Part shown: piece by piece, positions 5,501 to 50,510 of the stretch
Position numbering within the stretch: the stretch's first letter is position 1
Layout: the number at the start of each line of letters is the position of its first letter
Source: Amphiscolops sp. MND2022
Lineage: Eukaryota
Direction of reading: 5' to 3'
Assembly (NCBI GenBank): GCA_964187785.1
Contig: OZ076409.1
Span: 7,628,001-7,692,000 of the forward strand
Length of the DNA: 64,000 nt
Program-made: the position numbers and the translations under genes
The notes under the pieces: generated by a model
Databases searched by the model: none
Seen by the model: the letters and a program-made list of their open reading frames with translations, nothing else
What the model was told of the DNA's origin: nothing

Positions 5501-5760
5501 GCCTCGTGTTGTGTCGTGGATAATTAACTTTTTGTGCTGCGTTGTGGGTGAGGTCAAGCCCCTGGGACTCAATTGTAACTTGTTACCCGGAGTAGAGAGA
5601 GTGTTGACCAGTCAGTCTGGACCTCGAGCAGTCTCGCTTGTGCCGTTGCGACTGCACGACCTAAATCGCTGTCTCGTCGACGTAAGCGTGCGAGTGATGG
5701 GGGGGACCGACGTAAACAGTCTTCAGGAACAACTAACTGCTTGTGAGACTCCAGTCCCGT
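2570..5760 (+). pseudogene. Antisense spliced accessory gene of element A (BED-like Zn-finger, hAT-transposase-like), 3'-truncated
   Basis: Phase-compatible GT-AG exons: 2570-2587, 2726-2834, 2933-3028, 3337-4005, 4535-5097, 5313-about 5760. Acidic/Pro-rich N-terminus, then WF...C-LL-C...G...H-CRGMR-H. In-frame TAA TAG at 4867-4872. Confidence 0.7.
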
Positions 5761-17674: not shown

Positions 17675-18910
17675 ATGACAACCCAAAAGCAGGACGTCTG
17701 CTGTTTCGGAGACGTGCTTTGTCACATTCGGCGGAAAGTAATACATGTTTTCTAATAGCTGAAACTCGTTATATCATAATTACTGTATAAGGAAGAAATC
17801 TACAGACATGGAATACTTCGGACAAAAGTCGTCTCAATCAAGTGTTGCATCTCAACAGAACAGTTTCAAATACTGTATTCATGTAACTTCTAGCAAAGGA
17901 ACTTCCATGCTAGAGCTGAGCTGGGACAGTGCTTAGGTTGCCTGGACAGGAACATAGTCTATACACAAGCCTAAACACTAGTTTCTCTTCCGAAAACGGT
18001 CTCCTGGGGGACTTCTGTAGCGTCGAGGAGACTTCTGATTTTGGAGCTCCGTGGTGACATACTGGAACACTTAAAGTCCAGAAACGTCCCACAAGCACGT
18101 AAAAACCGTTTTCCAGGTTACCTGAGACTTCCTACATTCCGAGGTCCAAAGGTGACAATTATCCGAACTACTTTTATTGGCTACCCTAATCGAGATTGCT
18201 TGATTTTCTTACATGCTGCATGGGAACATGCATGCTAATTGTTTACAAAATTCATGAAGTATACATGGAAAAGTTTTGTAGAATTATAAAGCAGATTCCA
18301 CATTTTCAATTACAACTCAAAAAATTTCCACTTCTTCACCGGCGCGATCACTTTGTTTTCACGCATAAGTTTCTCAAGTAAGAAACTGTTTCAATAACAG
18401 TCAGTCAAATTGCACGCTGAATATGACGTTGCTTTGAAACAAATGATGTGACTGAAATTTACTTGCATTGAAATTGCGATATAATTAAAGAGGTATCAGC
18501 GGTTGTCAAAATTAGAACGGCGTCCTGATGAACCCTGCATAACGCCGAGTCTCGGAATAGCCGCCAAATTTAAGACGCTTTTTATAGGCAGTCTGATAAA
18601 ATTAAATCGAGTAAATTTTCATAAGAATTTGATAAAGTCATATATTTCCAGAAATCTGAAAAATAGCTCAAACATAGAGAGTTCTGTCGGCAAAACACTG
18701 AATCAAGATCTGAGCGCGTCCTTGATCTGCGGAACAGTCTATGCGAGGTATCGAGTATGCCAAAGTCCATAACTCCGTTGCTGAAATTTTGATTTCATGT
18801 ACCTGCCAAGGGTTTCATGTTGTACGACACGTTTCGAATTTTCAAACACTTTCTGGTAGGTGCTCTATCACCAGGCTAAGGACGTTACATCACTCCTTTG
18901 TAACTCAAAC

Positions 18911-20681
18911 TGTCGCCGGGCTTCCCCTGCGAGATGTCCGGAGTGCAGCATCAATGATCAGTTCAACTTGCTCCTTCCTACCGTCTGAGACCCGAAGATC
19001 CGAATCAAATCATCATCAGTGTACAAACTTCAAGAACAATTGAAGTTACTTAAACTGAGATAATTGTTTTGAATGTTTGTTCTTGTTGCTATTTTCTTAG
19101 CATTCGTTTGTGTTATAATGTTCGTTAATGTTGAAGCGGACGCCTTGTTGCCTCCACTGATTTAATTAAAACAGCGGTTCAACCGTTGGCAAATTGAAAG
19201 AAAAAGAAAAAAACTTTGATCAAATAAATTAGTCTCTAGTGACAATGTTACTAGTTGACCCAAGCCGAGCCTTTATTTTCACTGCCACTTTACCTCATAA
19301 GAGTGTACTGTAGTTTGATTTAGCTTTCAAAATAATAGAGCATTTGTAGCAAGACTATGTAGGAAGCTTTCATAATCAGCATGATGAATTACCCATGAAA
19401 CAGCATACCGTGCTCATACTTCTTTTCATAGACAGTTTATACTGCTTTATGCAGTTCTTACTAAGCCACATATGCGGCTTTTGCTAAAAAACAGTATGAT
19501 GACTACATACGTGCGGATAGTTATGCTACTTACCGCATTATGCGGAAGTATTGTAAAAACATCATGACGACTACATCCGTGTACACGTTTATACTCCTCA
19601 CCGCATTTTGCGGAAATATCTCGAAACAGCATGATGTTTAATTCATAATTAACATAATGAACAGCAGTGGAACAGTACCGATGAATTATACTGCATTATG
19701 TGGTTTCCATAAAACAGTACAAATGCGGATATACTGACAGAACGTCATAATCCGCATATTGCTTCTACAGTAATTTACTGATGTAGCTGTGCTATATTTA
19801 GACCTTCTAGGGGTATGACGTTATGAATTATTTTTAATCCCTGACCCTTGAAACATGGCGTTATGATGATTTGTATAAAATTGATTGTCATGCTACTAAA
19901 AATACCAACCAATAGAATCATTCGAAGCGAGTCCCTAAGAAATCAATTTTCCCCACATTCATTCGAAAAAATCTCACGCAGAACACAGTCACTCAATTTC
20001 ACAAACTACCCACAGTCCTCAAACTTTGCAGTTTTCTTTCTTTGTAAAGATAACTTCCACGATTTCATTTCACCAAAATATTTTTGTAATTCAAAGATTT
20101 CTACACTCAACACTGTTTTCATCATGGGAAATAAAAGAAATAGACGTTCAAGAAGGATAGAATCCCAGTCATCAGACAGAGAAGAGAATACTTCAGAAAC
20201 AAGCTTCACTCAAGGTAATGCGACTTTAGTTGATGTTTCTGAAAATGGTAATAACATTTTTGACAGGAACTTAGGTAGTGAACTGACAGAACCTTCACAA
20301 ATCAGCAATGAAATAGAAGTAATATCCCAGAGATTGTTTGAACAAAACAGTAACAAGATGACGCAAATTGAACAGCAACTGAATAGTAAATTCGAAGAGA
20401 TACTCAGAGAAATTAGAACAAATAAAGAAAGCAATTTGGCAAATGATGGAGAGGATGCCGAGAACAATAGGCCAGGTCCATCTAACTCGGAAAATAGAGG
20501 TCTCAGGAGTAATCACGCATCAAATACAACACTAGACAGAGACAAAAATCAGGATGATCGGTTTTGCCCATCTGAAATGAGTGAATTAAGACAACCGTAC
20601 ACACCACTTGGAATTGCTAATGAGACACTAGACGAAACTATCATTATAAACGAAAACAGACAGAAAATGCCGATCATCACA
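18911..20681 (+). repeat. 5' LTR of element B
   Basis: Matches 33813-35584; TGTCGCC...ATCACA. Confidence 0.95.
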
Positions 20682-20694
20682 TGGTGACTGGACC
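20682..20694 (+). promoter_or_regulatory. Primer-binding site of element B (TGGTGACTGGACC)
   Basis: Directly follows the LTR end; TGG is complementary to the tRNA CCA. Confidence 0.8.
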
Positions 20695-21780
20695 TACCAA
20701 GAACATCCTGAGACAAAGCTTTACTAACTCTAACACAACAAAAAAAATTGGACCACACGCAACAACTCTTCTCGAACATCCTGAAACATCAGACCCTGTC
20801 AGCCAAATTGCATTAGCAATTGAAAAACAGGCACGAAAAAACCCAGAACCCTCACTCTATCACCCGAAAAACACACTCACCTTTAACGGTAAATCAGAGA
20901 AAAATGAAAAGTTTGAATACTTTGAAAATCTTTTTCACACCACACTCAAGATGCAACCTCATCTCACTGAAGAGATGAAAATAAACCATTTTCCAGCCCA
21001 TCTCAGAGGACTGGCGTTAAAAACCTTCAAAAACATACAACGCACACCTACCACAACACTTGAAGACATCTTGGTAGTCTTCCGCAGAAAGTATGTCAAG
21101 CCTGAATCTAGTGCTTCAGCCAAACATAGATTCAACAGGCTTATGTTCCAACCCGAAAACCGGAAGCTGCCCGACTTTCTTGAAGATTTACAAGAGACTG
21201 CTGAAAAAGCATTTGGGGAAGCAGCGCCACAGATGATCGAAAGTCTCATATACGCAAAAATGTCTCCCCATCTAAAGAAATCAATCAACCAAGCGTACCT
21301 TGAGAATGGTACCTACGACCAAATTGTACGACACTTAGAACGCGAAATGGAACTCAATGGACTCGAAGCAGATGAGCCCTTAGTCAAAACACAAATGACA
21401 GCTGTAAAACAGCAAACTAACACACAAAACAATAAAAGTTCGACACAAAACACAAAACCTAAAACCAAAACTCCCAACACAGTTCCCAACAACACCCTAC
21501 AAAACAACCAATGTCGTTATTGCAAAGAAGAAGGTCACATGGCGAAGGAATGCCCAAAACTTGCAAGACGGCAAAAACTCGATAACGACCCAGACGCACC
21601 ACGATGCTCCCATTGTAACACGACAGGACATGAAGAACCCAACTGTTACTTCGGAGCTAACATGGAAAATTGTCCACCCAAATGGACACTGACAGAAAAT
21701 CAACAAAAACTCATTGACGAGTATAAAAAATCAAACAAACCCATCTTTCCACGAAACACGAAACCTTCAACATCGAAGGA

Positions 21781-21787
21781 TTTAAAC
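21781..21787 (+). other. -1 frameshift slippery site U-UUA-AAC (element B)
   Basis: Immediately before the gag TAA; the -1 frame is open into the 21856 ORF. Confidence 0.8.
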
Positions 21788-24700
21788 TAATAAAGCCACG
21801 CCTTCAAACAGAAACACCACAAAAACAACACTCTACTGATGACTGGCAGCATCAGTTGAGCCCCAAACCAACAAAAATTACAGTCTTTGATCATAAAACC
21901 AACAAAAACGACTCTCACACTACAGACACATCAACTACAAATCCAGATACTCAAACGGAGGATCTATATGACCTACTCAAAGATGCTCCTGATAACTACA
22001 TCCTACGACAAATCTTTGAACCTGCAACCGAAACAGAAACACAAAATCAACACCCTAACACCACACAACCTCAAGAAACACAAACTGACCACCTAAACAC
22101 ACAATCCACATCAACAACTCAAACCGACGAAGACGTCACTTCAGAACTAACTAAAACTCTCTTTTGTGCATCACCTGGAAAACAACCCCTCCTTGATAAT
22201 GATGGTTTCAATCATCTAACCACAGATGAAGGCAATAACATCTTGTCCTTGAACCTTTCTACAAACCTTACACTCAAAAAGAAACGTCATATGTACTATT
22301 TCCCAATGGATTTCGAGTAACTAACCCTGGATGGACTCATAGATACAGGCGCCTTAACAAGCGCAATTTCAGAAGCTGATCTTAATAAAATCAAACTTAT
22401 ATCAAATGAAGCAATCAAAGACACTGGCCCAGCACCTAACTTCCAAATTATGGTGGCAAACGGTCAACTTGAACGCCCCATTGGAACCGTCCTCCTCGAA
22501 TTCGAGGTAGCAGACTTCCAATTTCAAGAGGATTTCATAGTAATGAAGACACTACCCAACCCACTCATAGGCCTGTGCTTCCTACAAAGACACAACGCTC
22601 TTTTCGATATTCGACAAGGAATTATTACATTCCCATACTTGTCAATGCAACTGCGTCCCGAACACACAACAAACACCCGAACAGCAACACCCTTGCTGAC
22701 TGAAACCACTTATACCTTACAACCTGGAGAAACTCTTGCAATCTCCAGCAAAATGCCACACTTGATAGACCACAATGCAACAGGAATTGTTACTCGGTCA
22801 TCACACATGGAGGAACATGAGAGCATTTTCATTACCTCATCATTAAGCACAGTCAACAACAACGCAGTGGGTTACCAAGTGATCAATTTCTCGGATATGC
22901 CCTACACCCTTCCAGTGGACATACATATGGCAGATTTCCGAGTTCTCACACCAGAACAAATCAAACACATCAAACCAGTTGATCCATCAACCCTCACCTT
23001 CATGATGCATCAACATATAGAGAACACCGACCTTTACCTCAACCAACTGATGAAAACAAACCATTCATCGGATGAACAAGAAATGTATTGGTTCCCGACA
23101 CCTGAACAACCTGGGGATCCAGAAACATACACGCCCATACAAAAACGAATTTATGATGAACTACTAGAGCTCAAACAACTTGAACAATTGAACCAAAACG
23201 ACAACGCACAATCTAGAAAGCAATTCCTTGACCATTTCGACTGGACCGACACTACCCTAAGCCCATTCGAAAAACAACACATTGAAGACATTCTGGTGCA
23301 ATACCACGATATCTTTGCCAGACATCGGTTTGAAATTGGCACCAATAGAGAATTTAAGGTTAAATTGACTCCTAATGATGATAGGCCTGCCTACAGCCAA
23401 AGTCTCCCTACACCAATCAACCTCAAGGACGACATAACTGTTGAACTAGCCCTACTTCATCGTTATGGAATCATCACAACTTTACCTTTCTCTAAGTACG
23501 CAAGCCCTATCTTTGCCCAGAGAAAACCAAATGAACGCCTTCGTCTCCTGGTAGATCTGCGCAAAATCAACAACCTCATCACGCAAGATTATGTAAACAA
23601 CAACCACCCAATTAGCACATTGTCAGATGCTGCACAGCACATGGCCGGAAAGAAGCTTTTTTGCAAACTTGACTGCTCACAAGCATACCATTGTTTGCAG
23701 ATGGCCGACTACAAGTCAATACAAATGCTAGCTTTCAACTTCGCAAGCCGAACCTTTGCATACAGACGCCTTGCTCAAGGTCTTAGTCGTTCATTATCCG
23801 CTTTCTCTTCCTTCATGAGAGAATATCTAGACAAGGCCATCAAAGCTGATCAGTGTGCACAATACGTTGATGACATTGGTATAGGTGCGAACGATTCAAC
23901 ACAACTCTGCATCAACATCGAAACAGTCTTTGAATGCATCAGAAATGCAGGACTTAAACTTACAATGGCTAAATGCCATTTTGGTGTCAAACAGGTCGAC
24001 TTTTTGGGACGAACAATAACCCCACAAGGAGTCTCACCACAAACCGAGAAAGGCAAACAATTTCTTCAAAAACTCAAATTCCCAAAATCCAAAAAAGCCC
24101 TTCAAAGGTATATTGTATTCCTCAACTATTACCGAAACTACATCCCTCGTTTATCAGAGAAGCTGTCGCCTTTCATCAAACTACTCAAAAAAACATCACA
24201 ATTTTGCATACCAAACACTGTTTTGGACACATTCAAAGAATTAAACCAACAACTGGAGAAATCATGCAACCTTGCTCTCAAACAACCAATACAGAACAAA
24301 CAACTCATCCTGATGACAGACGCAAGTTTCACAGCGGCCGGTTATGCCATCATGATTGAAGATGATCTCAACCAAAAACTCCAATCTCGAAGGAAAACCT
24401 ACGCCCCGATTGCGTTTGGCTCAGAAACGTTCAATCCAACACAACTCAAAATGTCAATTTACGCAAAAGAATTCTTAGCAATTTATTTCGCGTTTTCCGA
24501 ATTTGGACACCTTCCCTGTTATAGTTTTCACAGACAACCGTTCAGTAACACGCTTCTTCCAAACAAAAATAATACCACCACCCCTCTGGAACGCCTGTGA
24601 CTATGTACTGCAATATAACTTCGTCATAGCACACGTTGCAGGAGCTATGAACACAGCAGCCGATTTCCTTTCAAGAGCGGAAGTAAACACGACTGAAAAA

Positions 24701-26757
24701 CTCGAAATGAACATCCGAAATGATGTTGCAACCAAAGCAATCGAAGTCAATATTCAGTCCACAGGAGTTGCTGAGGAAGAAACTCTCTACATCCTTCCGG
24801 ACGAATCCCCCACGGAACAGCAATTGTGGGAAGAGAAAAACACAATACGCTCTATGGCAAGAACGGAAACCCACAATGATCCAGAAAACGTAGTGTCAGA
24901 ACTCCAAACTTTCCATAAACCCACAGCGGGCACAATCAATTACCGCGAAGGGCACTTCAAAGACAACGCCAAAATCCACTTGGAACAAAACAATGACCAA
25001 GTACTACGCAATCTCCGATATAAACTTGAAGGCGAACCTTACGACGAAACAGAGTTTACGCAAGATTATCGCTACAAACACTATTTACAAAATATTACCA
25101 GAATTGAAATCAAACAAGATGTCCTAACACGAAGATACTACAATGATACTGGGATGATATCACATTACCAGATACTCTTACCAAAACAACTACTAGAAGA
25201 ATTCCTTCATGCACTTCATGGACATAACGCAAATCATCCTGGAATAACAAAGATGATCCAAGAAGCCCGGCAGAAATATTACTATCCCTGCATAGCCAAA
25301 TACATTCGAACTTGGGTCACAAAATGCCAAATGTGCATACAAAACAAACGGATCAATAATGACCTCCTCAAAACCGAACTACTGAATTGTCCTGAATGGG
25401 ACCTAGGTCCGGAAGATATATTGCAGATGGATATCCTTCCGAATCTTCCGCCAAGTGGAGGTTACGACAATATAATCACAGCAATAGACGTGTGTTCACG
25501 CTATCTGTTTTCATATCCAGTTACAAGAATTACTGCCCCAGCAGTAGCAAAAGTCATTATGGATATCTTGTGCAAACACACATATCTACCCACAACAATC
25601 ATTACAGATATGGGCACTCAATTCAACTCACAGGTTACTAAAGAAGTTGCAGCAGTTCTAAACATTGAACTCAAACACGCAACGACAAAACATGCCCAAA
25701 CAATTGGATTATTAGAACGTACCCATGCATCGGTTAAAGCGCATCTTAAAGCAGCCACTGGAGAATTCAGAAACAACTGGCATAAGTTTCTGCCATTGGC
25801 AGTCCTGAACCATAATACAACCTACAATGCAACACTTGGTTGTGAACCTACACGGGTCTTCCATGGAAGAATCCCGCACAATATACTTGATTTCAAACTT
25901 GGGTACAATCCAAACCCTAGATTTCAACCCCAAACTGAAGTAGCAGAAGAGGTACAAAGACGGATTGCATTACTTCATGACCAAACAAAGAAAAACATTA
26001 TGCAATCTTACCTCAAATATAAAGCATACTACGACAGGAAAGCAAAAGCAGCACCTCTCACAACAGGGGACTATTGCTTTATCTTGAATCCGAAAGCAGA
26101 CACACAGGCGACCAAAATACCCTTCAGAGATTTCCGCTGGGTTGGCCCTTATAAAGTCGAAAAAGCCCTACCGAATAACAATTACATTGTTCGTCGATTG
26201 GGCACAAATAAAACCCAATTGCTTCATCGTATACGACTACGTATATACATTCCACAAGCACCTCTAGCTGACAATTTTGTCAGAGAGTCTGAATGGCAAA
26301 AAGAAGATACACTTATTGCTCAAGATGACCTATATGCCCACACTTGGGACACAAATTTGGATCGAGCCCATTTGACACTGACCATGAAATTATTGATCAG
26401 CAAGAAGATATGGTAGAATACGAACCTGCTTCTCAACCTGGAATAAACCGCCCTCCCTCCCCTGATAATCCTCAAAACAGTGGGGGGACCCCATCAGAAC
26501 AACCTGCTGTGACCGACAAAGAACCCCAGATAATTGATGAAACCATTACAAGAAATGAAAATCAAGAGCTCATACCAGAAATTTCAAGAAATCCAGAAAC
26601 TTTCCAAGAAATACCAACCCAAAATTCACCAAAAACTCCCGAAAATATCCCAGAAATTGATGCACAAGAAACACAAAAAACAGTTAACACGAGAGGTGAA
26701 AAGTACAACCTACGCCCGAACCCTAACCCTAACTACTCAGACTCATACAGATACTAA
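21781..26757 (+). pseudogene. pol: Pol of element B (PR, RT, RNase H, integrase), with a stop at 22318 and frameshifts near 24510 and 26355
   Basis: LIDTGA, YVDD, TDAS, HHCC (HGHNANH...CQMC), integrase D,D,E core, C-terminal KYNLRPNPNPNYSDSYRY. Confidence 0.93.
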
Positions 26758-27032
26758 AAAAGACAAAATCAAGAGACTCAAAGACTTTAACTAAATACAG
26801 TCTCTGTTTATCTTTTGCTCTCACATCTTTTCTCTTCATTTTTTCTTTCCCAATCAGTTACTTCAGTAACCGTTTTGAGAATTGATTTACTGGAATCAAC
26901 AATACTAACTAAACCAAATCAGGTGTAATCAACCTGAAGCAAAGCAAACAAAGTATACAAAGAACAAAGCAACAAATAAAAGGCATACAAGCAACATCGC
27001 AATCTATGGAAACAGTAACAACTAGACGTCTC

Positions 27033-30000
27033 TCATTTACCACCGGGAGATGGTCTCTTCTTTATAGACAGTTTCTTCGCAGACTTAGTCTGATCAGGGG
27101 GCAGAAACGGAACCTCGCTGACAAAGCGCGGAACAGCCAAAGTAGCAGTAGCCAATTGCAGAGTCTGATCGAAACCTCTTGATGACCCACCGGAAGGCCC
27201 AACCGGGATTGGCCCTGGAACAGCAAGGTTCGAACTGGGTAGAGGAGTCTTGGGCGATTTACTAGTAGAAGAAGTGACCCGATCAGTTGGCGAAGAAGAA
27301 GTTGAACCAGAAGGTTTAGGATCAACATCCAGAGAAGTCCATGCCCTTTCTTCATCAGTAACCGTGCAGGTGAAACGGGACTCAAATTTATTCTGTAGTC
27401 GTCGTCGGCGAGAAGAGCAACTGGAACTAACGTCCCAAACAGAATAATCGGGAATTTCCAGCAAACTCCTCCCTTTTCCGAGCAAAGAAAAAATAGGGGC
27501 AACAGTTCTAGGATTGGAAAATAACCCTAAAACGTTGGGAATGCCGACCAGAGAAGACTGAACACTCCTAACTGCAGAAGTAAAATCACAGTTGTCAGAA
27601 GCCAAGTCAGGTAATGCAACGGTGAAAACAGGTGGAATGCAAATAGAGCTAGAAGTTCCAAGACAACACAATTTGAATACAGAGAATAAATTAGTGCGAC
27701 ATTGGAGCTCATAATAACCGGACATGAAGGTAACCCAGTCTGTGTCGTACTGTACTTCGCAAGACCTGAACTTCTCAACAAAAGACCGGTACTCACTCAG
27801 GATGAGTGGCTTGATGGAACTTGATATCCAGTCCCGTTGTATGAGGAAATCGCACAATTGGTCTGATTCTTCTTCGTAGTCCTCCTCCCGCCCATGTAAT
27901 ATCACAGCTTCGTCGAAAACAGACATTCCTCGGATAAGCTTCGACTTACGGATGCTGTGTTTCAGGAGCAAAGTACATAGACTTTTATAAAAACACAGTG
28001 CTTGTTCGACGAAATGAGTTGGCGTCGGTAGGTCACTCTTATTGACTAAGTCGGCAAAGTCTTTATTGCGAAGAAAATCAGTGACGCTTTTGAAAAGAAG
28101 ATCTGAAGACAAGTCGATAGATAAGAATCGGTCCCAGTCAGAGATGTCCCCCAAGAAAGAATCTGACAAGATTGTCTGGAGCTGACTATACACAAATGTG
28201 GCGTAGGAGCGACTCCTTTGAAAGCCGATTGGTCTGAAGCATTTCCAGATTAAGAAAAGGAATCAGACATTAGAAGAATGGAAAAAAATAGAAAAAGGCT
28301 AACAATGAAGAAGCACATTCCGTACTAGAAACAACTTGGCGGGATAAGTCTTGTCTTTAAATATCGTCTCATCCAAACTTTTGGGCTGAAACATCAAAGT
28401 TTGACCAATAAAACTATGTTAGAACAACGATATCTGCAATTTCGAAAACGAATATTACCTCTTTCATGTGGTACTTGAAAGCCTTGATCCGGTCAGTGAG
28501 ACGGAGATAAGCAACCACATGATGCCAATTCTGGTACAGTTCTCCAAGAAGAATAGCGCACTTGTCATAACTGTATTCGAAGCTACAGATCGCCTAAAAG
28601 AACAAATTCATGCCTGTGAGAACTAATAGCATTGGAAATGAACTCAAGACATGACGCATTATGATGTCTTCCGAATACAGTATAGGATGCTGAACAGCAT
28701 ACAGCATAAGATATGCGGACTATACGGATTAACCGTGAAACCAGCATAATTCAAGAAAAACAGTATAAAAGAATAAATCACGCTGTTTTTGGAAGAAAAC
28801 AGTATAAAAGAAATAATGACGTCGTTTTGGAAAGAAACAGCATAGAAGAAAAGTTCATGCAGTTTCCGGAAAGAAACAGCATAGAAGAAAAGTTCATGCA
28901 TTGTCCGGAAAGAAACAGCATAGAAGAAAAGTTCATGCGGTTTTCAAAAGAAACAGCATAGAAGAAAAGTTCATGCGGTTTTCAAAAGAAACAGCATAGA
29001 AGAAAAGTTCATGCGGTTTTCGGAAGAAAACAGCACTAAGAAGCATCCATGCGGTCTCCGTAAAGGAGTCAGCATAGAAGAAAGGTTTATGTGGTTGTTG
29101 GAAGAAAACAGCATAAAGGAATACTCATGCGGTTTTCGAAGAAAACTGCATAAAGAAGCACCCATGCAGTTCCCGTAATGGAAGCGCATAGAAGATGTGA
29201 TTATGCGGATTTCGGAAAAGATGGCATAAGGAAATACCCACACTACAAGCAGAATAAAAACAGTATAAAGATAAAATCTATGCAGTTTGCAGAAAATAAT
29301 GACTATGCGGAGTAGCAGCGTAATGAAACGAAGAAACTACGGTCAAGATCCAACAAAATATGCGGTAATATGCGGTTTTCTGAAGACGTCTTAGGGGTGT
29401 TAATTACAACTAGGAAGGGATATAATAATGGTTAAACAATGCAAATGCTTACTTCTCGAAGCTCCTGCAAGTTGTTGAGCCAAGCTGATCCCAAAGCTGT
29501 CCGGAGTTTCATCAAATGAACGTGTAAAACGCTGTGTATGTCATAGCGGTCCAGGATTTTGATACATGGGCCTGCGAGCATCTTGTATAGATCTTCATAG
29601 CCGAAAGTAGCAACGATGCAAATGGGTGTGGATTGGTCCAGCTCAGTAGTCAGTGTTTTACTGACCCGCCCATCGAACCCGAGCAGAGAAAACACAGTGG
29701 GTGGATTACTTGTAACAGCAAGGAAAGAAGAGATGGCATCGAGGACTTTTGGAGCTGTTTGAAGACTGTTGGGAAACTCGGAAAGGCAGAGACTATTATA
29801 CACATTCCCAGACCAGAAGGCCAAGTTGACCTGAGCAACTTTAGTCGAAGAACTGATTTGAAGGGAACACAAGCCCCGCTGACCAATAGATGTGGCTGAA
29901 TATCGTAGTAACTCGTGAAACATGTAGACGAGTATCCCCTGTGAATCATATGAATTAAATGTATGATAAATAAATGTCCAACTCAGTCAGATAACGAAAG

Positions 30001-31325
30001 ATACTTACGAAAACACGTTTCTGTCTCCAGTCGTACTGTGGGAATCTAGTGAGCCCCTGTGGCTCGACATTCAAATTGGACAAGAGTGAAGGTAATAGGT
30101 CCAACTCTCCGCCAGATTGGAGTCCTAACAGGAGAAGCCTCATCTGGGAGCATGCTACTGATGAAGGATCAAGAATTTCAGTGTCTTTTGGCAACTCCCT
30201 CTGTCCTGGCAGCAGGTGACATTCGCTCAAAGTTGGAGTGATTGGAAACGTCTGCTCAGCTTTTTCCCGAGCTTCATCTAGAGCAACTCCAGTTATCTCT
30301 CGCTCATTTTTGTCATAAAGTGGAAGTCCTGGCGTTTCTAATCTAATTCGGTGCTCTCGAACCAAGTGAGCATCAGTACGGTAGTGCGATAGAATTTCGA
30401 GCGATCCTTTCGTTTTTAGAGACAATTCTACTTGGCATACTCTACAACGCCACTTGTGAGGATTCTCGTTCGGGTCAGCCGGGCCTGTGACAAAGAATTT
30501 GAACACGGGATGTTTTTTATACATCTGAGCAGAAAGTTGCATTCGGGGTCTTGGTCTTTTGCTAACCACAACTTGTTCATCAGATGTTGTTTGGACCGGG
30601 TCAGAAGTTTCAGTGTTGTATGAACGCCTGAGAGAGCGTCTTTTCCCCGGAGATGTAATTGGAGTCCGTTCTGCGGCACTACGTCGTTGATTTGTCCGTG
30701 TGGATTCACCTCCAGAAGGGCCCGTTGTGGGTTCAGATCTTTCAACAGCGTGCGCAGACAATGATTGCTCAAGCTTTGTACTGACAAGAGTTTCAAGTCT
30801 CTGCTCCAGTGCCTCTAATTCGGAACTTGTAACGAAATTACCAAATTGTGTTACTGGGAGCGATTGAGCATTAGTAGCTGGTTCTCGGCTTTCTTGCTCG
30901 GCGGAGGCTGTTACTGCAAGTTGACCGAAGTAACGTGTGGCTGGGGAAGTTCGAGAATGGATTCCTTCCAACATAGGAGTAGTCGCCCGTGAGGAACATT
31001 CATCAGGTAGAGTTCTTCTTTCTCCTGCAGGAGCGTTTGGATTGGAGCAATCGGGTTGCTCACCAGTCACATCAAGAATGAGATGAAGATTAGAATCGAT
31101 GGAAGTGGCAAGGAAACTAACAGGTTCTTTGAGACTTGTCATGCTGTGGTCAAACGAGTGTTTGATCCCGTCTTGGTCAAGAGTTACGTTAACAGTTTCA
31201 CAGAAAGAACGCTCTGGTTCAGGGGTAGAATGATGAAGGGGAGCAACAGACGTCAAAACCGTCAATTCGTTGGAAGTTGTTTGTCTCTGGTGAGAGGATT
31301 GAGAATCGGTATGAGCTGGAACACA
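27033..31325 (-). CDS. Antisense spliced accessory gene of element B (BED-like Zn-finger, hAT-transposase-like)
   Basis: Exons about 31300-30009, 29938-29453, 28593-28459, then about 28385-27033 with a probable further intron; GTAAG donors and CAG/TAG acceptors. Motifs WRCRVC...KTKG..EIL.H....H, L.EL...W..V..YL, GMSVFD, FKLCCL. The start and the last junction are uncertain. Confidence 0.72.
28830..29020. repeat. About 38-bp tandem repeat (GAAAGAAACAGCATAGAAGAAAAGTTCATGCGGTTTTC), roughly 5 good copies plus degenerate copies over about 28700-29380
   Basis: Visible tandem units inside intron 2 of the antisense gene; no unique spacers. Confidence 0.9.
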
Positions 31326-31997
31326 TAAAGAATTGGAAATAAAGATGACAAAAGTCGATGAAAATCAACCTGAAAACGGATGTTATCCGACTAAATTGTG
31401 GGAAAGTGATCACTTCCTACTTCGAAATTAGAGTTAACTCGAAAAAATTGTTCACAACTTGAAACAGAAAGTCCGAAAATGGACCTGTGGAGAGCGGATG
31501 TGAAAATAAAATTTGTTCAGCGACGGAAACAGGAAGTCTTCAAGCGACACTTGTGAAAGTCCAATATGAAACCAAATACCGAAATATTTTCATCCAATAA
31601 TTAAAGGTTGGAAATGTACAAACCTTGTGTTGGCAAATCGGTTCCTTCCTTGCAGCCAGACATCGCTTCACCCAGTGGATCCATAAGATAAACTACACAA
31701 CGCTGTAGTCGATTGCAAAACAAAGAGTCCGTGAAAATGGCAGTGTTGGGAGAACGAAAACCAAGTGAAGCTAATTCAGAATAACGAATCGGGAAGTCGA
31801 AATTGGATAATTCAAACGAGAAATGTGAGAAACTAAAGATGACGGAACTATAAATGACTTGAAGACTCTGAAAATTGTAAAAACTACGAAGACTGAGATT
31901 TAATAATGTAGATTGAAATTATCAAGAAATCAAAATTATCAAAGCAGCTGGAAACAGAAGGCGTGGCAGTTAACGAGAAGGCAATAAAGCAAATGGA

Positions 31998-32041
31998 TGA
32001 CGTCACTAATGGAGTTTTCAGTGTATCTCAAATCTGATTGG
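31998..32041. promoter_or_regulatory. CRE-like TGACGTCA and CCAAT box (CTGATTGG) in the divergent spacer between the antisense gene and ORF3
   Basis: CTGATTGG-like boxes occur in the equivalent spacer of A (2024), C (51070) and D (about 54315). Confidence 0.4.
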
Positions 32042-32911
32042 TCGAGAGCAAGTATTCAGTTTGGCCATTTCTGCCAGAATGACTAAATTGGAGGAATCCA
32101 TACCTTATAAGGAAACTGACGGACTTTGCGTATTAACACGCAACACGCTGCTACATTGAAAGTGCACTATGCTGTTCTGCATTAAAAACAGCATAATGGT
32201 GCAGCGCTATCGTGAACAACAATGTGTTATGGTATAGAGAAGAAAATGTAACAAGGAAGCATAATGGGATTATGCGGAATTTAAAGTGAAACTGCATAAA
32301 GTGTTTATGCGAAAAACTATCAAAGACAACATGGTGAAGTAATAACGGCGATATGAGAAATTATGATGCATTATGATGTTTTCTGTAAGCAGTTTATGAT
32401 GTGAATCACTACTAATACTGCTGATTTGAATATTACACACCTACTAGTGAAAGAAAGAAATTCCACAATTTTGAGAAAGATGATTCATACAACAAAGTGT
32501 GAAATCTTCACATGATTAATCTGAATGGACTACAACCATGATCTATTTTGATGATGAGTAATTAAAATTCAGTTACCCTATATGGGGTAGCTACCGGCAA
32601 TATATGAAAGAAACTCTGAAAACCAACAGTTATTGATGATCAATTAAAGAAACTCGATGATGCTAGATTTCCATAAATTATTTGATAATTATCCTAAAAC
32701 CCGGGAAAAGGGTGACGCGAAAATGTGTTGGAGCAATTTATATAAAACCCATAAACCTATAAAAATCTAGAAAACTTCACCAGTTTGGTCTTAAATTTTC
32801 TGAAAACAGCTGATCTTCGCCTTACAACATTCTAATCTTGTAGCAATTCTTGATTTATAATTGAATAACAATTTGAACCGTTTATACCAATTGATTTGAT
32901 AAAACATAAAA

Positions 32912-33859
32912 ATGGACAGCACACCTGTTGGAAAAAACAACAACACGAGGAACCCAATGTTAATTGACACAGCATTGGACTTAATAAATATCTCCAGTAG
33001 CTCTGAGGAAGGATTTACGGTGGAACGTTTCTCCTTGCCCGAACTAGAAGATAGGTTCAGAGTTGCACCATCATCGATCACGAACATGCCAACTGCTTTC
33101 ATGGGGTCGGCAGAGGCCTCATTATTTGTGACCAATTCAGTTGATGCCAGGTCAACAGGATGTAAAGACACAAGAGGAACGTCCATTGAAACTGAGCTGA
33201 TGGACCTACTGAACGACATACCGGATATTTCACCCACAACGTTCATTGATACCTCCGACAAAGAAAAGAACCCCTTCCCAGAGGCTAATTTCGCGAATGT
33301 ACAAAGGAACGCGTATGGTCGCCCTACTCAGAGAGTGTGCCCTATGCCCAGACAGCAACAAGAGACGCAACCTCTTAATGCCAACCTACCAACTATACCC
33401 AGCCAAACAAGCGCTTTTACAGCGTATACAGCACCACAGCAGAGAACAACTGACCCGAATCCTCGTCCTACACAGCAAGCACAGTATTTGCCGATGCCCA
33501 TCCCGTTCTACCCTAATGCGTGGAACAATATGGGATATGGGACATTGGGCCATAATATGCAACCACCACCATCAAGCAACGTTCCCGCCCATAACGGAAC
33601 CTTGTTGCAAATGAATCTTCCAGTCATGCCCGAGGTCGCAGGTTCTTGCCCAGGTTGCACTAAAACCTATGACCAAATTGCAGTAGAGACATTGACCAAC
33701 TACGTTGCTTGGTCCGAGTATCCTGATGAAACAATCCGCGACAGAAACGTCAGATCAAGGGCTTTTGTGGACGGATTTGGAGCTGCGTTAATCTGCTTCA
33801 AAAATGCTGGACTGTCGCCGGGCTTCCCCTGCAAGATGTCCGGAGTGCAGCATCGATGA
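32912..33859 (+). CDS. ORF3 of element B: 315-aa accessory protein of unknown function (SIM-like motif, P/Q-rich linker, C-terminal CxxC domain), overlapping the 3' LTR
   Basis: Intact ATG-initiated ORF. The C-terminal block aligns without gaps to ORF3 of C (CxxC.K/R.S/T.D.I..E....Y...S....E.......R..AF/Y..G). Confidence 0.75.
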   Translation: MDSTPVGKNNNTRNPMLIDTALDLINISSSSEEGFTVERFSLPELEDRFRVAPSSITNMPTAFMGSAEASLFVTNSVDARSTGCKDTRGTSIETELMDLLNDIPDISPTTFIDTSDKEKNPFPEANFANVQRNAYGRPTQRVCPMPRQQQETQPLNANLPTIPSQTSAFTAYTAPQQRTTDPNPRPTQQAQYLPMPIPFYPNAWNNMGYGTLGHNMQPPPSSNVPAHNGTLLQMNLPVMPEVAGSCPGCTKTYDQIAVETLTNYVAWSEYPDETIRDRNVRSRAFVDGFGAALICFKNAGLSPGFPCKMSGVQHR

Positions 33860-35584
33860 TCAGTTCAACTTGCTCCTTCCTACCGTCTGAGACCCGAAGA
33901 TCCGAATCAAATCATCATCAGTGTACAAACTTCAAAAACATTTGAAGTTACTTAAACTGAGATAATTGTTTTGAATGTTTGTTCTTGTTGCTATTTTCTT
34001 AGCATTCGTTTGTGTTATAATGTTCGTTAATGTTGAAGCGGACGCCTTGTTGCTTCCACTGATTTAATTAAAACAGCGGTTCAACCGTTGGCAAATTGAA
34101 AGAAAAAGAAAAAAACTTTGATCAAATAAATTAGTCTCTAGTGACAATGTTACTAGTTGACCCAAGCCGAGCCTTTATTTTTACTCCCACTTTACCTCAT
34201 AAGAGTGTACTGTAGTTTGATATAGCTTTCAAAATAATAGAGCATTTGTAGCAAGACTATGTAGGAAGCTTTCATAATCAGCTTGATGAATTACCCATGA
34301 AACAGCATACCGTGCTCATACTTCTTTTCATAGACAGTTTATACTGCTTTATGCAGTTCTTACTAAGCCACATATGCGGCTTTTGCTAAAAAACAGTATG
34401 ATGACTACATACGTGCGGATAGTTATGCTACTTACCGCATTATGCGGAAGTTTTGTAAAAACATCATGACGACTACATCCGTGTACACGTTTTTACTCCT
34501 CACCGACTTATGCGGAAATATCTCAAAACAGCATGATGTTTAATTCATAATTAACATGATGAACAGCAGTGGAACATTACCGATGAAATATACTGCATTA
34601 TGTGGTTTCCATAAAACAGTATAAATGCGGATATACTGACAGAACGTCATAATCCGCATATTGCTTCTACAGTAATTTACTGATGTAGCTGTGCTATATT
34701 TAGACCTTCTAGGGGTATGACGTTATGAATTATTTTTAATCCCTGACCCTAGAAACATGGCGTTATGATGATTTGTATAAAATTGATTGTCATGCTACTA
34801 AAAATACCAACCAATAGAATCATTCGAAGCGAGTCCCTAAGAAATCAATTTTCCCCACATTCATTCGAAAAAATCTCACGCAGAACACAGTCACTCAATT
34901 TCACAAACTACCCACAGTCCTCAAACTTTGCAGTTTTCTTTCTTTGTAAAGATAACTTCCACGATTTCATTTCACCAAAATATCTTTGTAATTCAAAGAT
35001 TTCTACACTCAACACTGTTTTCATCATGGGAAATAAAAGAAATAGACGTTCTAGAAGGATAGAATCCCAGTCATCAGACAGAGAAGAGAATACTTCAGAA
35101 ACAAGCTTCACTCAAGGTAATGCGACTTTAGTTGATGTTTCTGAAAATGTTAATAACATTTTTGACAGGAACTCAGGTAGTGAACTGACAGAACCTTCAC
35201 AAATCAGCAATGAAATAGAAGTGAAATCCCAGAGATTGTTTGAACAAAACAGTAACAAGATGACGCAAATTGAACAGCAACTGAATAGTAAATTCGAAGA
35301 GATACTCAGAGAAATTAGAACAAATAAAGAAAGCAATTTGGCAAATGATGGAGAGGATGCCGAGAACAATAGGCCAGGTCCATCTAACTCGGAAAATAGA
35401 GGTCTCAGGAGTAATCACGCATCAAATACAACACTAGACAGAGACAAAAATCAGGATGATCGGTTTTGCCCATCTGAAATGAGTGATTTAAGACAACCGT
35501 ACACACCACTCGGAATTGCTAATGAGACACTAGACGAAACTATCCATATAAACGAAAACAGACAGGAAAATGCCGATCATCACA
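33813..35584 (+). repeat. 3' LTR of element B
   Basis: Matches 18911-20681; followed by TSD CAAAC. Confidence 0.95.
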
Positions 35585-36000
35585 CAAACTTATTGATGTT
35601 TCTCTTCTGTTCTCTGTGGAAGAAAGCACAATGGAGTGTACGAAATCAGCAAAAAAACAATATGTTGCGTTATCCTTACGAACGACTCTAAGATGACCGG
35701 GAAAGCCTTTCGAGTTAGTAAAGCTTGGGGCCCATTGCCTCTAAGCAATTAAGGTACAATGTCCGAAAAGTAGTATTTTTGGGATTTTTCACAGAACTCT
35801 TCTTTCGGTCTGTAAAAATTACAAACAAACGCGTAAAAGATCACAAATCTGAGGTCTTTACAACCAAGTTACCAAACAACTTTGCTTCCAGGTACTAGAT
35901 ACTTTGGTGCTAAGAAAAATCATTAGAAAAGGGAAAACAAGTTCAGAGATGCAATTTTTCGTGAAAAGTGGTATATGCATTCCAACGCAACTTGAATTGG

Positions 36001-36519: not shown

Positions 36520-37912
36520 TGTGGCAGGCTGCCGCCTTGACGGTACAACAATGACGACCCCAGCTGAAGGACAAGGGATCATGCCAGGCACTTTGCCTAC
36601 TTTCTAAAATTGGAGACCGAGAAACACTTAGTTAAACTGGAATTCATCCCATTTTACATTTATACATTTTTTTGCTATAATTAGATACTTTAAAACGTTC
36701 AGTTATTAGTCTGTCAACATACAAATTGAATTGCTCAAGATGAAGTTTGGATTAGTAAAACTTTTCTAAATTTGCAATGTAAAAGTGTATGTAAAAGACA
36801 ACTGATTAGCAGTATAAGAAACGTGTTCAAATGTGAGAATGTACTATTCCGACAACGTCACTTGCGCTCGTTGTTTGGACCAATCACGTTTCGCTATTTG
36901 CTGCACTTAATGTATTTATACTAATGACCGAATAAGGCCCTTTGACGCTGCTACTCTATACCTAAAAGGGAAGCTAGTCAAACAGCATGTTCAGGCTATT
37001 TGTTACAATGTATCAAAGCAATGTTAATCTCCCACCCAATTAGTTGCAGATGATGATTTTAGTACTTTTTATATTTTAACCTATACATTAGTTGCTATTC
37101 CTTGACGCTCAATTTTGACAGATTAGTCCATGTGTATTCGTTGAATAAATATCCCAAAGTGCTCATGTGTCAAGTCGCCGGATTAGGCTAATTTCAGGTT
37201 AAGTTATTTGATGCGATGATGTTAAGTCACGGTGAGTAAGAGAACCTTTTAGCCGCACGTAAATACACGTGCCCACCAAGGAATGCAATTTCAAGATGCG
37301 CCTGATTTTCTAATAAAGTTTTACAATCAGGAGTTCTTGCTGCCTGCTACTAGAAAATAGAAGAAAGCTAGAAAATCTAGAGGTGCAGAAAAGCTACCTG
37401 ACATCGAAAATCTAGATATCATGTTGCGAGGTAACCATTTAGAAAGAGAAGAAAGTGAATATGGTAGCTTGAGTAGAAGGTCAAACAGCCCTAATTTCAA
37501 TGTCCATGAAAACAATGAAGGAATTCATTGCCCTAATCCTATGGAATCTAGATCGAGTAAGAGTGCCGAATACGGCCACAGTTCTGCTGCACTGTTTCTA
37601 TTGCTGAATTTACTAGGCTATCAGGGGAACCTAACCTGAGAATCTCAAGAGAAAAGGATGAGATGATGAATAGCGTCAGTGTTCAAATCCAAAGGTTCAT
37701 TATTGATGCAATAAGTAGTCAGGTCTTACCGCAAATCCAGAATGCTCTTAAGACTGGATCTGGATCATTGACTCAGAATGGATGGAACATCCCGACTGGG
37801 AGACAGGAACGACATACCGAGGACCATCCTAGTCAGAAAGTTAGGAGTAGTTCTAGAAGTGAGCCAGTCCGTACCCATCCTTGTGACGAAGTTACATTCA
37901 ACGCTCATGACA
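36520..37912 (+). repeat. 5' LTR of element C (lacks about 300 bp present in the 3' LTR)
   Basis: Aligns to 52139-53839 except for 52930-53225; ends CATGACA. Confidence 0.9.
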
Positions 37913-39056: not shown

Positions 39057-42000
39057 CTTCGCCACGACTCCAACACAACGATCTGGTATCAGTTCGACAA
39101 AGTGTCAGATCTGATTCTCCAACAAATGTATTCCACGAATATCAACAACAATTGTTGGGTGTCCTTCTGTTGTCTGACAGCAACAGATGGAAAAAGCAAC
39201 CCTCGTAACATATAACAACACTCATTTGTACAAAAAACCAACTCCAGTATGGGATCCTGATTTTACCACCAGCTTTCCTCAACGATTCAGGCCCATTCTC
39301 CTTTTTGATGACTATAACCCAACGTATATCGATCCAGATTATGGCAGGGATCGCTATTGGGACACTTTGATTCACAATCAAGACTTGCTGCAATTTCAAC
39401 ATGTACTGGACGATATTGAACTCTATAACAAATCAGTCCACGAAAATCCACCTATAACTCATGACAAGAAAACAAGGGCACTCGACGTCTCAGTCATTAT
39501 TGGCTATAAAGCAATTCCAAAACACCCTTATCGCCAATGATGGTGAACCAGACTGTTTACCACTCTCTACCAACATCAACTTCAAATCCAGGAAACGCAT
39601 TATGTATTTCCCGATGGACTTTTGGAATTGAGCATCGACGGTCTAATCGACAATGGGGCATTATCCAGTGCGATTCCTGAAATGGACCTGAAATGGACAA
39701 TCCGTTTACTCTCCCCACAATAAGGTATCCGGGAATGTCCGCCTCCTCCGATTTTTCAAATATTGGTCGCTAATGGACTATTAGAAACTACTAAGAGTAC
39801 TACTGAACTGAAATTTGAGTTTGATGACATTGAATTTCATGAAATTTTCAGAGTAATGGAGAACGTGACAGGACCGATGATCAGGCTCCTGGTCCTTCAG
39901 AGAAATCACACAGGTCTGGATATGAGACAAGGCATTGTGAATTTCTCATTTCTCTCCTTGCAGCTCAAATCAGCTGAACATCGATACTCTAATGTTCTTG
40001 AGCCGATATTTAATCCAACCGAAGTCACCATTCCGCCCAATGATAGAGTCCTAATTAGAAACCAATTCGCTACTCTTTCCGTAGAATATAGTAACTGGCA
40101 TCCTCTGGCCCTGTGACTTTCTGCATGAAGATGGTGACATAACGTTTAGCCCGGCTTTTGTCACATTGAAAGAGGGCAATATCTAAATACCAGTGAATAA
40201 TTTCACAGATCACCCTTATGAGCTCAAGAAGGGACTGCACAATGCTATCTTCTCGTTCATGACACCGGAACAGATGAAATATGTCAAACCGGTCGATACA
40301 ATTTCAACTTGGCACTTTCTACAAAATGACCAGGAACAAGCAGCACACTACGTTAGCAGTCTCATCAAAACAAATAAAAATACGCAAATCTCTGAAAATT
40401 ACTTGTTCCTTACACCAGAAAACCCTGGAAACCAGAGGAACGCACGCCCGTCCAAAAAAGAATTCTGCGTGATTTACACGCCCTACGGGACCTGGAGGCC
40501 CTTGATCCTACCAAAGACAAAGACTCTAGGACAAAAGTCTTGGCAAACTATGACTGGAAAAATTCAACGCTTGCACCTGATGAAATATAGAGAATCGAAG
40601 AACTACTAGTAGAATTTCTCGATATATTTGCAAGACACCAACTTGACATCGGCATGAACGAAGAATTCAAGGTGACACCGTCGCCTAAGGACGATTCCCC
40701 AGCAGATAGTCAAAGCTTTCCGTCCCCAAATAACTTGAAGGAAGACATACTGGACGAACTGGCATTGTTACATAAATATGGCATGTTCACATCACTTTCG
40801 TTTTCAAAACATGCTAGTCCAAAATTTGCACAAAAAAATCCAAACGGGAAACTCCGACTACTGGTTGACTTTAGAAAAAGCAAAATCTAATATCGGACGA
40901 TTATATAAACAATAATCATCGCTTAAGTACCCTAACTGACGCTGCCCAGCATATGCCCGGGAAAATGCCCTTCTGCAAGTTGGACTGTTCACAAGCCTAT
41001 CATTGCTTGCCGATGGCTGACCAACGCTCAAGTGAAATGTAGGAATTTAATTTTGCCATCCGCATCTTTGCATACAGATATTTGGCAGAAGGCGTTAGCA
41101 GGGCGCTATCCGTAATCTCAAGCTTCATGAGGGAATATTTTGACAAAGTCAACAAGGTGGACCAATGTGCTTGAAATGTGGACGACAATGGCATTGCAAC
41201 GCTGACCACCTCATTGCCAACCTGAGAGCAACTTTTAAATGCATTCAGAAGGCAGGCCTTAAACTACCGATGCACAAATGTCATTTTGATGCAACAGAAA
41301 TTGACTTCCTTGGACGAAGGCGTCAAACCACAAAAGCAAAATGTACAGAATTCCCTTGAGAAGACCAAATTTCCGAAGTCGAAAAAGGCTCTGCCACGCT
41401 ATTTGGAACTCTTAAACTACTATCGAACTATTTCCCAAGACTGTCTGAACGCCTAGCCTCATTCTACAAGATGCTTAAAATTGACGAAAAGGTCCTAGTA
41501 TCTAAAGAACTGGTTCAACAATTTGAGGAAATCAACAAAGCACTAGACAAATTTTGCAACCTAGCTCTTCAGCAACTTCCCAACAAGCAGATCGCCCTAA
41601 TGATCGATGCAAGTTTCTCTTCTGCAAGATATGCGGTACTTAAAGAAGATTACCCGAATCAGAAATTTACCTCATTCTGCAAATCATACGCACCGGTGGC
41701 TTATGGATCAAAAACCTTCACTCCGGTCTACGTAAAATGTCCATTTATGCCAAACAATTTCTTGCAATTTACTTCGCTTCCAAAGAATTCGGACACATTT
41801 TCTGAGGAGCGCCTAAACCGGTTATAATCCTCACCGACAATAAAGCCGTGACTCGATTTCTTCAAACAAACATTGTACCGCCAGCCCTGTGGAACGCATG
41901 TGACTATGTCATTTATTTCAATTTTGTCATAGCACACATCCCAGGAGCACGAAACACGGCCGCGAATTATCTATCCCTTCTCGAGTTGGATCCGAAAAAC

Positions 42001-49900: not shown

Positions 49901-50510
49901 GGGAGAACTCATCAGAGCTTCCGGCTTCGCCCTGACTGGAGATAAAACGGACCTTGGGCCTTCCCCCTGGTAGTGAGGGAGCATCACACAAAGATGAGAC
50001 GTTCTTGTCATCAGTCTGCATCGGAATTTAGGCAGCACTCTCCTGGTTTGAACTGACTGTGGTCAAAAGCTCAAGTAGTTGTGACTCCGGATCAATAACT
50101 ATTTTGAGAGCAGACTCTAAGGCAGACAAATCGGCTTCAGTGTCCTAGTCCCCGCTAGGTAATATGGGTACTAGATCTTGTTCCAGGGTTGCTGTCTGCA
50201 CCAGTTGAGTTTTGGAAACCTTGGACCTCCTCAGAACTCTCATTGACTGAACGAGATCCATTTGACGCAGCAGGTTCTTGAGCTTGCTCCATCCTTCGTA
50301 CAAAAATTTCAGCATAAGCCGTTACATCTGGCTCATTATCTTGACTGTAAGGAGAAGAGTCAGGAAGAAGCAGTGATTGAGGTGTAGTATTGGGAGCTGC
50401 AGCCACACCGGGAGTGTTGGCTTAGGATTTGATTGGTACGTCAGAATTCTCTAATGTCTGGTTTTCTTAACAGAAGGGAATGAATCCGAGCAGTGTGCTT
50501 CGTCGGAAGA
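47000..50510 (-). pseudogene. Antisense accessory gene of element C (decayed, with internal deletions)
   Basis: RGEFFAKIGWTRS..SGPADP.HNP...WCQICKKNFSIKTKG.LE.L..H.TERHLRR and LAAFDPF...FDLLYSSF..RSW; closely similar to the element D gene. Ends approximate. Confidence 0.8.

Follow-up and report, generated by a model that had tools for sequence, protein, structure and literature searches.

The 64,000-nucleotide (nt) stretch of Amphiscolops sp. MND2022 DNA analyzed here (contig OZ076409.1, positions 7,628,001 to 7,692,000; hereafter the window), which belongs to an animal genome of 1.07 Gb, carries a Ty3/gypsy retrotransposon, element B, in which a multi-exon gene lies in the interval from pol to the 3′ long terminal repeat (LTR), on the minus strand. 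This antisense gene consists of five exons, is under purifying selection in its folded exons, recurs in the same position and orientation next to pol in most of the genome loci sampled, and behaves as a hypervariable cassette, the last being a new finding of this work. Taken as a whole, the reading that we favor, and regard as fairly probable, is that this is an inherited five-exon antisense accessory gene of Ty3/gypsy elements and a dead derivative of a hAT transposase.

Self-blastn of the window identified four Ty3/gypsy elements, A to D. Element B (18910-35584, plus strand; 16,675 bp) is a complete LTR retrotransposon, whose LTRs are 98.25% identical and have TG..CA ends, and which is bordered on both sides by the 5-bp target-site duplication CAAAC. 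Its 5′ LTR (18910-20681, plus strand) is followed by a TGG.. primer-binding site, and its 3′ LTR lies at 33813-35584 (plus strand). Open reading frames (ORFs) and Pfam matches delimited gag-pol at 20624-26757 (plus strand), with gag including a zinc knuckle (zf-CCHC), protease, reverse transcriptase (RT; RVT_1), RNase H, and integrase (IN; rve) in this order; together with the LTR pair and the target duplication, this order is that of a Ty3/gypsy element. Two minus-strand ORFs, 29955-31364 and 27033-28262, both lie inside the LTR pair and belong to the antisense gene.

The gene model was derived from a MAFFT alignment of element B with 14 genome loci, i.e., 15 copies at 42-60% protein identity. 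The alignment resolved five exons with conserved GT/AG splice sites, two of which are small extra exons found inside what had appeared to be a single long intron. Splice sites were mutated in a few of the copies, and acceptors and donors were kept in most. The first-pass annotation, made from the letters of the window, had called the gene intron-containing, and the conservation of these sites across the 15 copies confirmed this. All parts of the gene are on the minus strand. Exon 1 (30006-31364) is an open frame that encodes a long low-complexity N-terminus, a finger, and a helical linker, and it ends at the donor ttc/gtaagt; its first ATG is at 31142, and an exon further upstream is possible. 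The CCHH (BED-like) zinc finger, WRCRVC...HLVREH, is located at 30351-30452. Intron 1 (29939-30005; 67 nt, GTAAGT...CAG, phase 0) lies at one shared alignment position in genes of the B type and the D type, which are only 15-20% identical to each other. Exon 2 (29453-29938) encodes 162 aa, contains GFDGR, and forms a putative degenerate RNase H-like core. Intron 2 (28594-29452) is followed by exon 3 (28459-28593; 45 aa, AICSFEY...KAFKYHMKE), which includes a W-containing motif and has a conserved AG/G acceptor and GAG/GT donor, and by exon 4 (28304-28385; 82 nt, PKSLDET...RNVLLH), with the donor CAYT/GTRAGT in phase 1. Exon 5 (27033-28233) encodes an all-α domain with GMSVFD and LFKLCCL and then a disordered tail. 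The full protein comprises about 1,000 residues. Copy B itself carries a private 34-nt deletion at about 28208, just inside exon 5, which was absent in all 10 related loci checked; read in the phase of exon 4, this deletion shifts the last exon out of frame and leads to a stop after 62 codons. No AATAAA or ATTAAA was found within about 380 nt downstream of the stop codon in B, which is uninformative by itself. Intron 2 holds a minisatellite at 28757-29157, with a 38-nt unit in 10.4 copies at 79% matches, and units related to it are present in inverted orientation upstream of the antisense gene at 32160-32305.

The distribution of the gene in the genome was then assessed in 20 loci picked from 102 scored matches and spanning 53-96% identity. 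In 18 of the 20, which represent several element families, exons 1, 2, and 5 adjoined the gypsy IN/RT on the opposite strand and in the same order, and no pol was present within the fetched stretch of L014 and L028. Finer analyses used the 14 loci with a simple arrangement, excluding L011, L014, L025, L027, L028, and L029. First-look searches of the whole genome returned 6,514 candidates with B exon 5 as query and 3,549 with D exon 2, and the match was free of stop codons in most of the 102 (B exon 5) and 150 (D exon 2) scored matches. Furthermore, frames of 390-460 codons remain open across families that are only 52-62% identical. A profile of exon 5 retrieved 428 cluster representatives from a library of 1.84 billion proteins; all of the 150 representatives listed were 418 aa or shorter, i.e., single-exon gene calls, and no longer protein containing exon 5 occurred among 6,573 candidates.

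Around the antisense gene of B, no terminal inverted repeats (TIRs) were detected, the best pair being 12 nt long and at chance level. The TIRs and 8-bp duplication typical of hAT transposons were lacking, and the gene instead resides inside an LTR element with a 5-bp duplication. The first-pass annotation had regarded the gene as an inherited part of the element rather than a chance insertion, and had pointed to TIRs of its own as the mark of independent insertion. Its claim was borne out: the gene is enclosed by the LTR pair and the target duplication, it keeps its position and orientation in 18 of 20 loci, no TIRs flank it in B, and the ratio of nonsynonymous to synonymous substitution (dN/dS) is low in exons 2 and 5 (0.06-0.15; see below). 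Thus, these data strongly support that the antisense gene is an inherited, selected component of the element. Tandem partial duplications of the region comprising the end of pol and the antisense gene were also observed, in L011 (C5:11787800-11797700), L025, and L044; L011 has two exon-5 copies 4.3 kb apart, and in L044, exon 2 and a second exon 1 beyond it are joined in one open frame.

Selection on the coding exons was estimated as dN/dS by the Nei-Gojobori (NG86) method. The antisense gene was saturated in most locus pairs, leaving three pairs with usable divergence. For exons 1, 2, and 5, respectively, dN/dS was 0.33, 0.09, and 0.11 in L017-L019; 0.44, 0.06, and 0.15 in L018-L020; and 0.42, 0.06, and 0.06 in L021-L024. 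The values of 0.06-0.15 in exons 2 and 5 were obtained at a synonymous divergence (dS) of 0.06-1.9, and pol, compared between element families, showed a dN/dS of 0.02-0.05 at a dS of 1-2. The low dN/dS indicated that the folded exons are under purifying selection, and the dN/dS below 1 that the first-pass annotation had proposed to look for was therefore found in all three pairs. The low-complexity N-terminus encoded by exon 1 is less constrained.

The antisense gene did not follow the rest of the element in its divergence. Among the 14 loci, which were hand-chosen and are neither a random nor a complete sample, six pairs had a pol divergence of at most 0.09 at 4-fold degenerate sites. The antisense genes were near-identical in two of these six pairs; in the other four (L013-L017, L020-L021, L018-L021, and L022-L024), the antisense exons were 35-75% identical in protein, and the 4-fold divergence of the cassette was 0.64-0.77. 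Sliding windows delimited the cassette to about 5.3 kb with sharp borders in all three pairs scanned. In the oriented loci of these pairs, identity was mostly 92-100% upstream of about 1,240, was 41-81% from there to 6,500-6,650, with transitions about as frequent as transversions, and returned to high values at about 6,650-6,750, a few hundred bases beyond the stop codon. The borders of divergence were common to the scanned pairs, and the sole exception inside the cassette was an intron-2 stretch, including the minisatellite, that is 93-98% identical in L013/L017. The minisatellite array was 93-98% identical in one locus pair whose flanking exons were 60-75% identical at the nucleotide level.

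Elements with near-identical pol and upstream flank therefore carry anciently diverged versions of the gene, i.e., they are mosaic. ADAR-type hypermutation of the sense/antisense overlap was ruled out as the cause of the divergence because transitions and transversions were about equally frequent inside the cassette. When the tree of the gene is set against that of RT, as the first-pass annotation had suggested, incongruence rather than co-divergence would be expected; the gene is always present, and yet it seems to have been exchanged between elements. The pattern fits a recombinational exchange of old versions and, equally, a diversity long maintained in a recombining population of elements. 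The presence of old versions in near-identical elements points to a function in conflict or specificity. It is conceivable, although we hold it to be doubtful, that the captured DNA-transposase gene is a determinant of specificity or immunity that is kept under long-term diversifying or balancing selection and shuffled among near-identical elements, and that it fights host silencing or competing lineages. If this were true, the gene would be, in an animal LTR retrotransposon, a functional counterpart of the accessory or antigen genes that are hypervariable in viruses.

As to the identity of the protein, its N-terminal half was modeled via database ORFs, such as P0210, in which the frame stays open across the short intron 1. 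The model displayed a β-β-α finger, helices, and then the succession β1-β2-β3-α-β4-α. Foldseek placed Hermes chains at ranks 1-8 of 350,542 for this model (E 0.013-0.21, probability up to 0.95). Hermes likewise ranked top among 48,161 chains when two models that cover separate, non-overlapping portions of the protein were compared, the matched ranges being in the right order; in total, it was first in three of four fold searches with two models, at modest scores throughout. In the ESM Atlas search with P0210, the one such search that took in both the finger and exon 2, 9 of the 10 named clusters listed carried hAT-derived families (EPM2AIP1, ZBED5, GTF2IRD2/FAM200, DUF4371, and Dimer_Tnp_hAT), and the remaining one was without a common family; the scores were 0.79-0.84, and those below 0.9 were rated as leads only. 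The FAM200/ZBED5 RNase-like and FAM200-GTF2IRD2-like families (PF27073 and PF27046) were indicated by the ESM Atlas search only. For exon 5, the AlphaFold2 model from B and 51 homologues was all-α, with block-mean predicted local distance difference test (pLDDT) values of 91-98 over residues 21-200. Although each of these lines is weak individually, they agree on a family that had been named in advance, which gives weight to hAT ancestry.

Quite a number of results speak against the favored reading. Pfam scans of exons 1 and 5 of B found nothing, those of the 51 exon-5 homologues found no hAT family (five unrelated families with one member each), and those of 11 longer pieces yielded sub-threshold finger matches only, such as zf-BED on a D-type copy (E 0.13, 12.8 bits versus a cut-off of 20.6). 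The C-terminal dimerization family PF05699 was matched by none of the 51 exon-5 homologues at E values up to 0.1. DUF4371 (PF14291) had no match in this genome and none in control genomes either, and is hence uninformative. Searched against PDB sequences, the exon-5 profile gave chance rows only (E 0.55 and 5.9), and hhalign of profiles A4 and A2 with one canonical hAT transposase of the same genome (L045) gave probabilities of 0.4% and 0.08%, the value for the exon-5 profile being 0.08%. Foldseek of the exon-5 model against PDB returned no match at E ≤0.001, and Hermes was absent from the best 50 rows. The N-half model has a mean pLDDT of only 48.2, and its alignment with Hermes has a root-mean-square deviation of 10.3 Å. 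The W motif occurs in B-type and not in D-type sequences, the window copies B, C, and D are all frameshifted, and a probe for intronless copies, made of one degenerate pattern over a single junction (exon 3 to exon 4), had 0 matches at up to two mismatches. Finally, the catalytic acidic residues are not conserved between the two types, as judged by eye against canonical hAT in alignment A3 rather than by structural alignment. At the strand-1 position, B-type proteins have Q, K, or N and D-type ones have E ((L/V)EFE); at the DG position, most B-type proteins have D (GFDGR) and D-type ones have S (SGC). Neither type has the ER.FS motif that marks the C-terminus of hAT transposases.

The hAT derivation claimed in the first-pass annotation was therefore upheld in part. 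The fold search and the ESM Atlas neighbors of the N-half were in its favor, whereas Pfam, PDB-sequence, and hhalign comparisons gave no match; likewise, of the AlphaFold and Foldseek check that had been proposed, the N-half led to Hermes and the exon-5 model was left without a Foldseek match. On balance, hAT ancestry of the antisense gene has moderate support, and we consider it likely. Given that the catalytic residues are not conserved, the protein appears to be catalytically dead, and it is most likely a DNA-binding, possibly dimerizing hAT derivative encoded by an accessory gene. Canonical hAT elements are themselves abundant in the genome, with 2,215 first-look candidates for PF05699 and frames of 597-697 aa that are stop-free in the match; they are possible donors of the captured gene, but none is alike in sequence.

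The favored reading can be put in terms of a mechanism as follows. The introns are antisense in the genomic RNA, so they would remain unspliced before reverse transcription and would thereby persist. The encoded protein would consist, in order, of a disordered N-terminus, a CCHH finger, a helical linker, a degenerate RNase H-like sheet, and an all-α domain; this predicted order is that of hAT transposases, of which Hermes is the best structural match. An antisense promoter within the element would drive expression of the protein, which would serve as an accessory factor that may regulate transcription or integration of the element or may counter host silencing. Beyond the structure of this gene, its place in the element, its selection, and its cassette behavior, what we infer is that the gene stems from hAT and is read from an antisense promoter, that its protein binds DNA and has lost catalysis, and that it has the biological role proposed here.

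Other explanations were weighed against the same data. A real, selected accessory gene that is not derived from hAT, and whose product is an unrelated zinc-finger protein superficially like Hermes, is a lesser possibility that still deserves consideration, since no hAT model or protein was matched significantly by sequence or profile, the confident exon-5 model had no Foldseek match, the N-half model is of low confidence, and the ESM Atlas scores stay below 0.9. However, Hermes had been named beforehand, and it nevertheless came first among the 48,161 chains for two non-overlapping models and filled the first eight of 350,542 Foldseek ranks with matched ranges in the right order; the language-model neighbors of the N-half also come from one hAT-derived clan. 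The protein could still be an active nuclease or transposase, for example a second route of DNA cutting and joining for the element. The B-type GFDGR at the site of the second catalytic Asp of hAT enzymes, the D-type (L/V)EFE in the first strand (assigned by eye), and the purifying selection on exon 2 would agree with this, but we consider it improbable, because neither type is acidic at both places (Q/K/N in strand 1 of B-type, SGC in place of DG in D-type), ER.FS is missing, and there are no inverted repeats as substrates.

It would be very surprising if only the antisense RNA mattered, as a source of double-stranded or small RNA, with the open frames being incidental. Antisense non-coding transcripts are indeed described for micropia and TART in the available part of PMC7264820; such a role is nonetheless contradicted because selection acts on codons, with dN/dS of 0.06-0.15 in exons 2 and 5. 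It is also at odds with frames of 390-460 codons kept open between families 52-62% identical, with the conserved splice sites and exon phases, and with the confident predicted fold of exon 5. Nested insertions of hAT DNA transposons into gypsy elements, independent of one another, might be expected where canonical hAT elements are as abundant as here (2,215 first-look PF05699 candidates). This explanation was nevertheless excluded, its probability being negligible: position, orientation, and exon order relative to pol are constant in 18 of 20 loci from several families, the best inverted pair in B is the 12-nt one at chance level, the gene matches neither PF05699 nor the canonical hAT of the genome, and the divergence borders are common to pairs.

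In comparison with known systems, the favored hAT-derived antisense gene is closest to Hermes and to the ZBED5, GTF2IRD2, EPM2AIP1, FAM200, and DUF4371-type families, with which its predicted parts agree in order, namely CCHH finger, helical linker, putative β1-β2-β3-α-β4 core, putative all-α insertion, and C-terminal helix. Each half has Hermes as its best structural match, and these families are the nearest language-model clusters. As in domesticated hAT forms, the catalytic triad appears to be absent. Unlike these relatives, the antisense protein has no Pfam or hhalign match, no inverted repeats, and no 8-bp duplications; it has a very long disordered N-terminus, and it is carried and multiplied by an LTR retrotransposon instead of being a host gene or part of a DNA transposon. 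Host genes of the SCAND3/ZBED9 type combine gypsy-integrase-like and hAT-like parts; those are, however, single host genes read on one strand, whereas here the two are separate, opposite-strand genes of a multiplying element. HBZ of human T-cell leukemia virus type 1 (HTLV-1), one of several antisense genes of retroviruses, has a spliced form and is a basic leucine zipper (bZIP) factor, hence of a different protein family. It differs further in that its gene is far smaller and belongs to an exogenous vertebrate retrovirus. What HBZ has in common with the present gene, according to the accessible portion of PMC11963269, is that it is an antisense protein-coding gene of a reverse-transcribing element, its product being a nuclear regulator.

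Antisense ORFs are best documented in plants. According to the accessible portions of PMC11963269 and PMC7264820, the region from pol to the 3′ LTR of Retand, Grande, and RIRE2 holds antisense ORFs along with tandem repeats, and many of these ORFs carry Transposase_28, with a function that is unknown there. The plant Tat/Retand elements (Grande gene23, RIRE2, Retand TRP28) thus resemble element B in having an antisense coding region between pol and the 3′ LTR, which is a feature of most copies of the lineage and for which a DNA-binding or regulatory role is suspected (same portions of PMC11963269 and PMC7264820). The host here is an animal, as judged from its many rhodopsin-type (7tm_1) receptor genes, and this gene differs from the plant ones by its four introns and its predicted hAT-like fold; PF04195 (Transposase_28) was not matched in Pfam scans of the B ORFs, the 51 exon-5 homologues, or the 11 longer pieces. 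Nor are the plant ORFs described, in those portions of PMC11963269 and PMC7264820, as intron-containing or as hypervariable cassettes. A literature search, of incomplete coverage and thus no proof of absence, found no gypsy element of an animal with an antisense gene that is hAT-like or contains introns, nor cassette-like variability of such a gene.

Antisense accessory genes of LTR retrotransposons have been known mainly from plants, with origin and function unknown there. The present case adds an animal genome, thousands of candidate copies, a clear conserved exon-intron structure, measurable purifying selection, and a candidate ancestor. If the hAT origin is true, a class II enzyme has been domesticated by a class I element and not by the host. 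Furthermore, the old gene versions in young, near-identical elements suggest that the gene stands at a point of conflict or specificity.

The other three elements of the window were delimited by self-comparison. Element A (minus strand) is bounded by LTRs at 1-1395 and 11188-12582, and element C (plus strand) by LTRs at 36520-37912 and 52139-53839; element D, on the minus strand, extends past the window edge. By tblastn, B matched C and D with E values of 2.5e-12 and 6e-10 for exon 1, and with 1e-7 for the last exon. The homologue in D lies at 54976-59111 on the plus strand, opposite to its element, and has frameshifts; that in C, at 47038-50132 on the minus strand, is degraded with several frame changes. 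In A, a remnant at 3162-5235 (plus strand) contains the finger ORF 4498-4869, which matched the family profile weakly (hhalign E 0.0038, probability 8.7%, 45 columns); this element has lost its integrase as well as the 3′ half of the gene. The first-pass annotation had seen a homologous antisense gene in all four elements, which is firm for B, C, and D and reduces to a weak finger remnant in A. The motifs that it had named were all present: the CxxC..H..H finger in A, B, C, and D, GMSVFD/GLAAFD in common to the aligned copies, LFKLCCL in B and D by alignment, and LLGELYQNWHHVVAYL, which sits in a small exon that had not been delimited earlier. The deletion in element A is at 5733-5816, and its pol frame stops at the start of the zinc-binding region of integrase.

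Element B has a further frame of 318 aa, ORF3 (32903-33859), on the plus, i.e., sense, strand; it separates the antisense gene from the 3′ LTR, into which it runs. ORF3 has no Pfam family in B; matches to it were found in 17 fetched loci at 50-83% protein identity, frequently over partial length, and its counterpart in C (51372-52227, plus strand) showed a weak match to the Spin-doc zinc finger (E 0.021). Given ORF3 beside the antisense gene, each element may carry two accessory genes. Each 1.77-kb LTR of B also holds a long open frame on the plus strand, 19845-20687 (280 aa) and 34753-35691 (312 aa), neither of which has a Pfam family; the one in the 5′ LTR extends to the end of this LTR and overlaps with the beginning of gag. 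Element C, for its part, has an internal tandem duplication of about 2.96 kb in pol (39431-45348), the copies being 96.5% identical.

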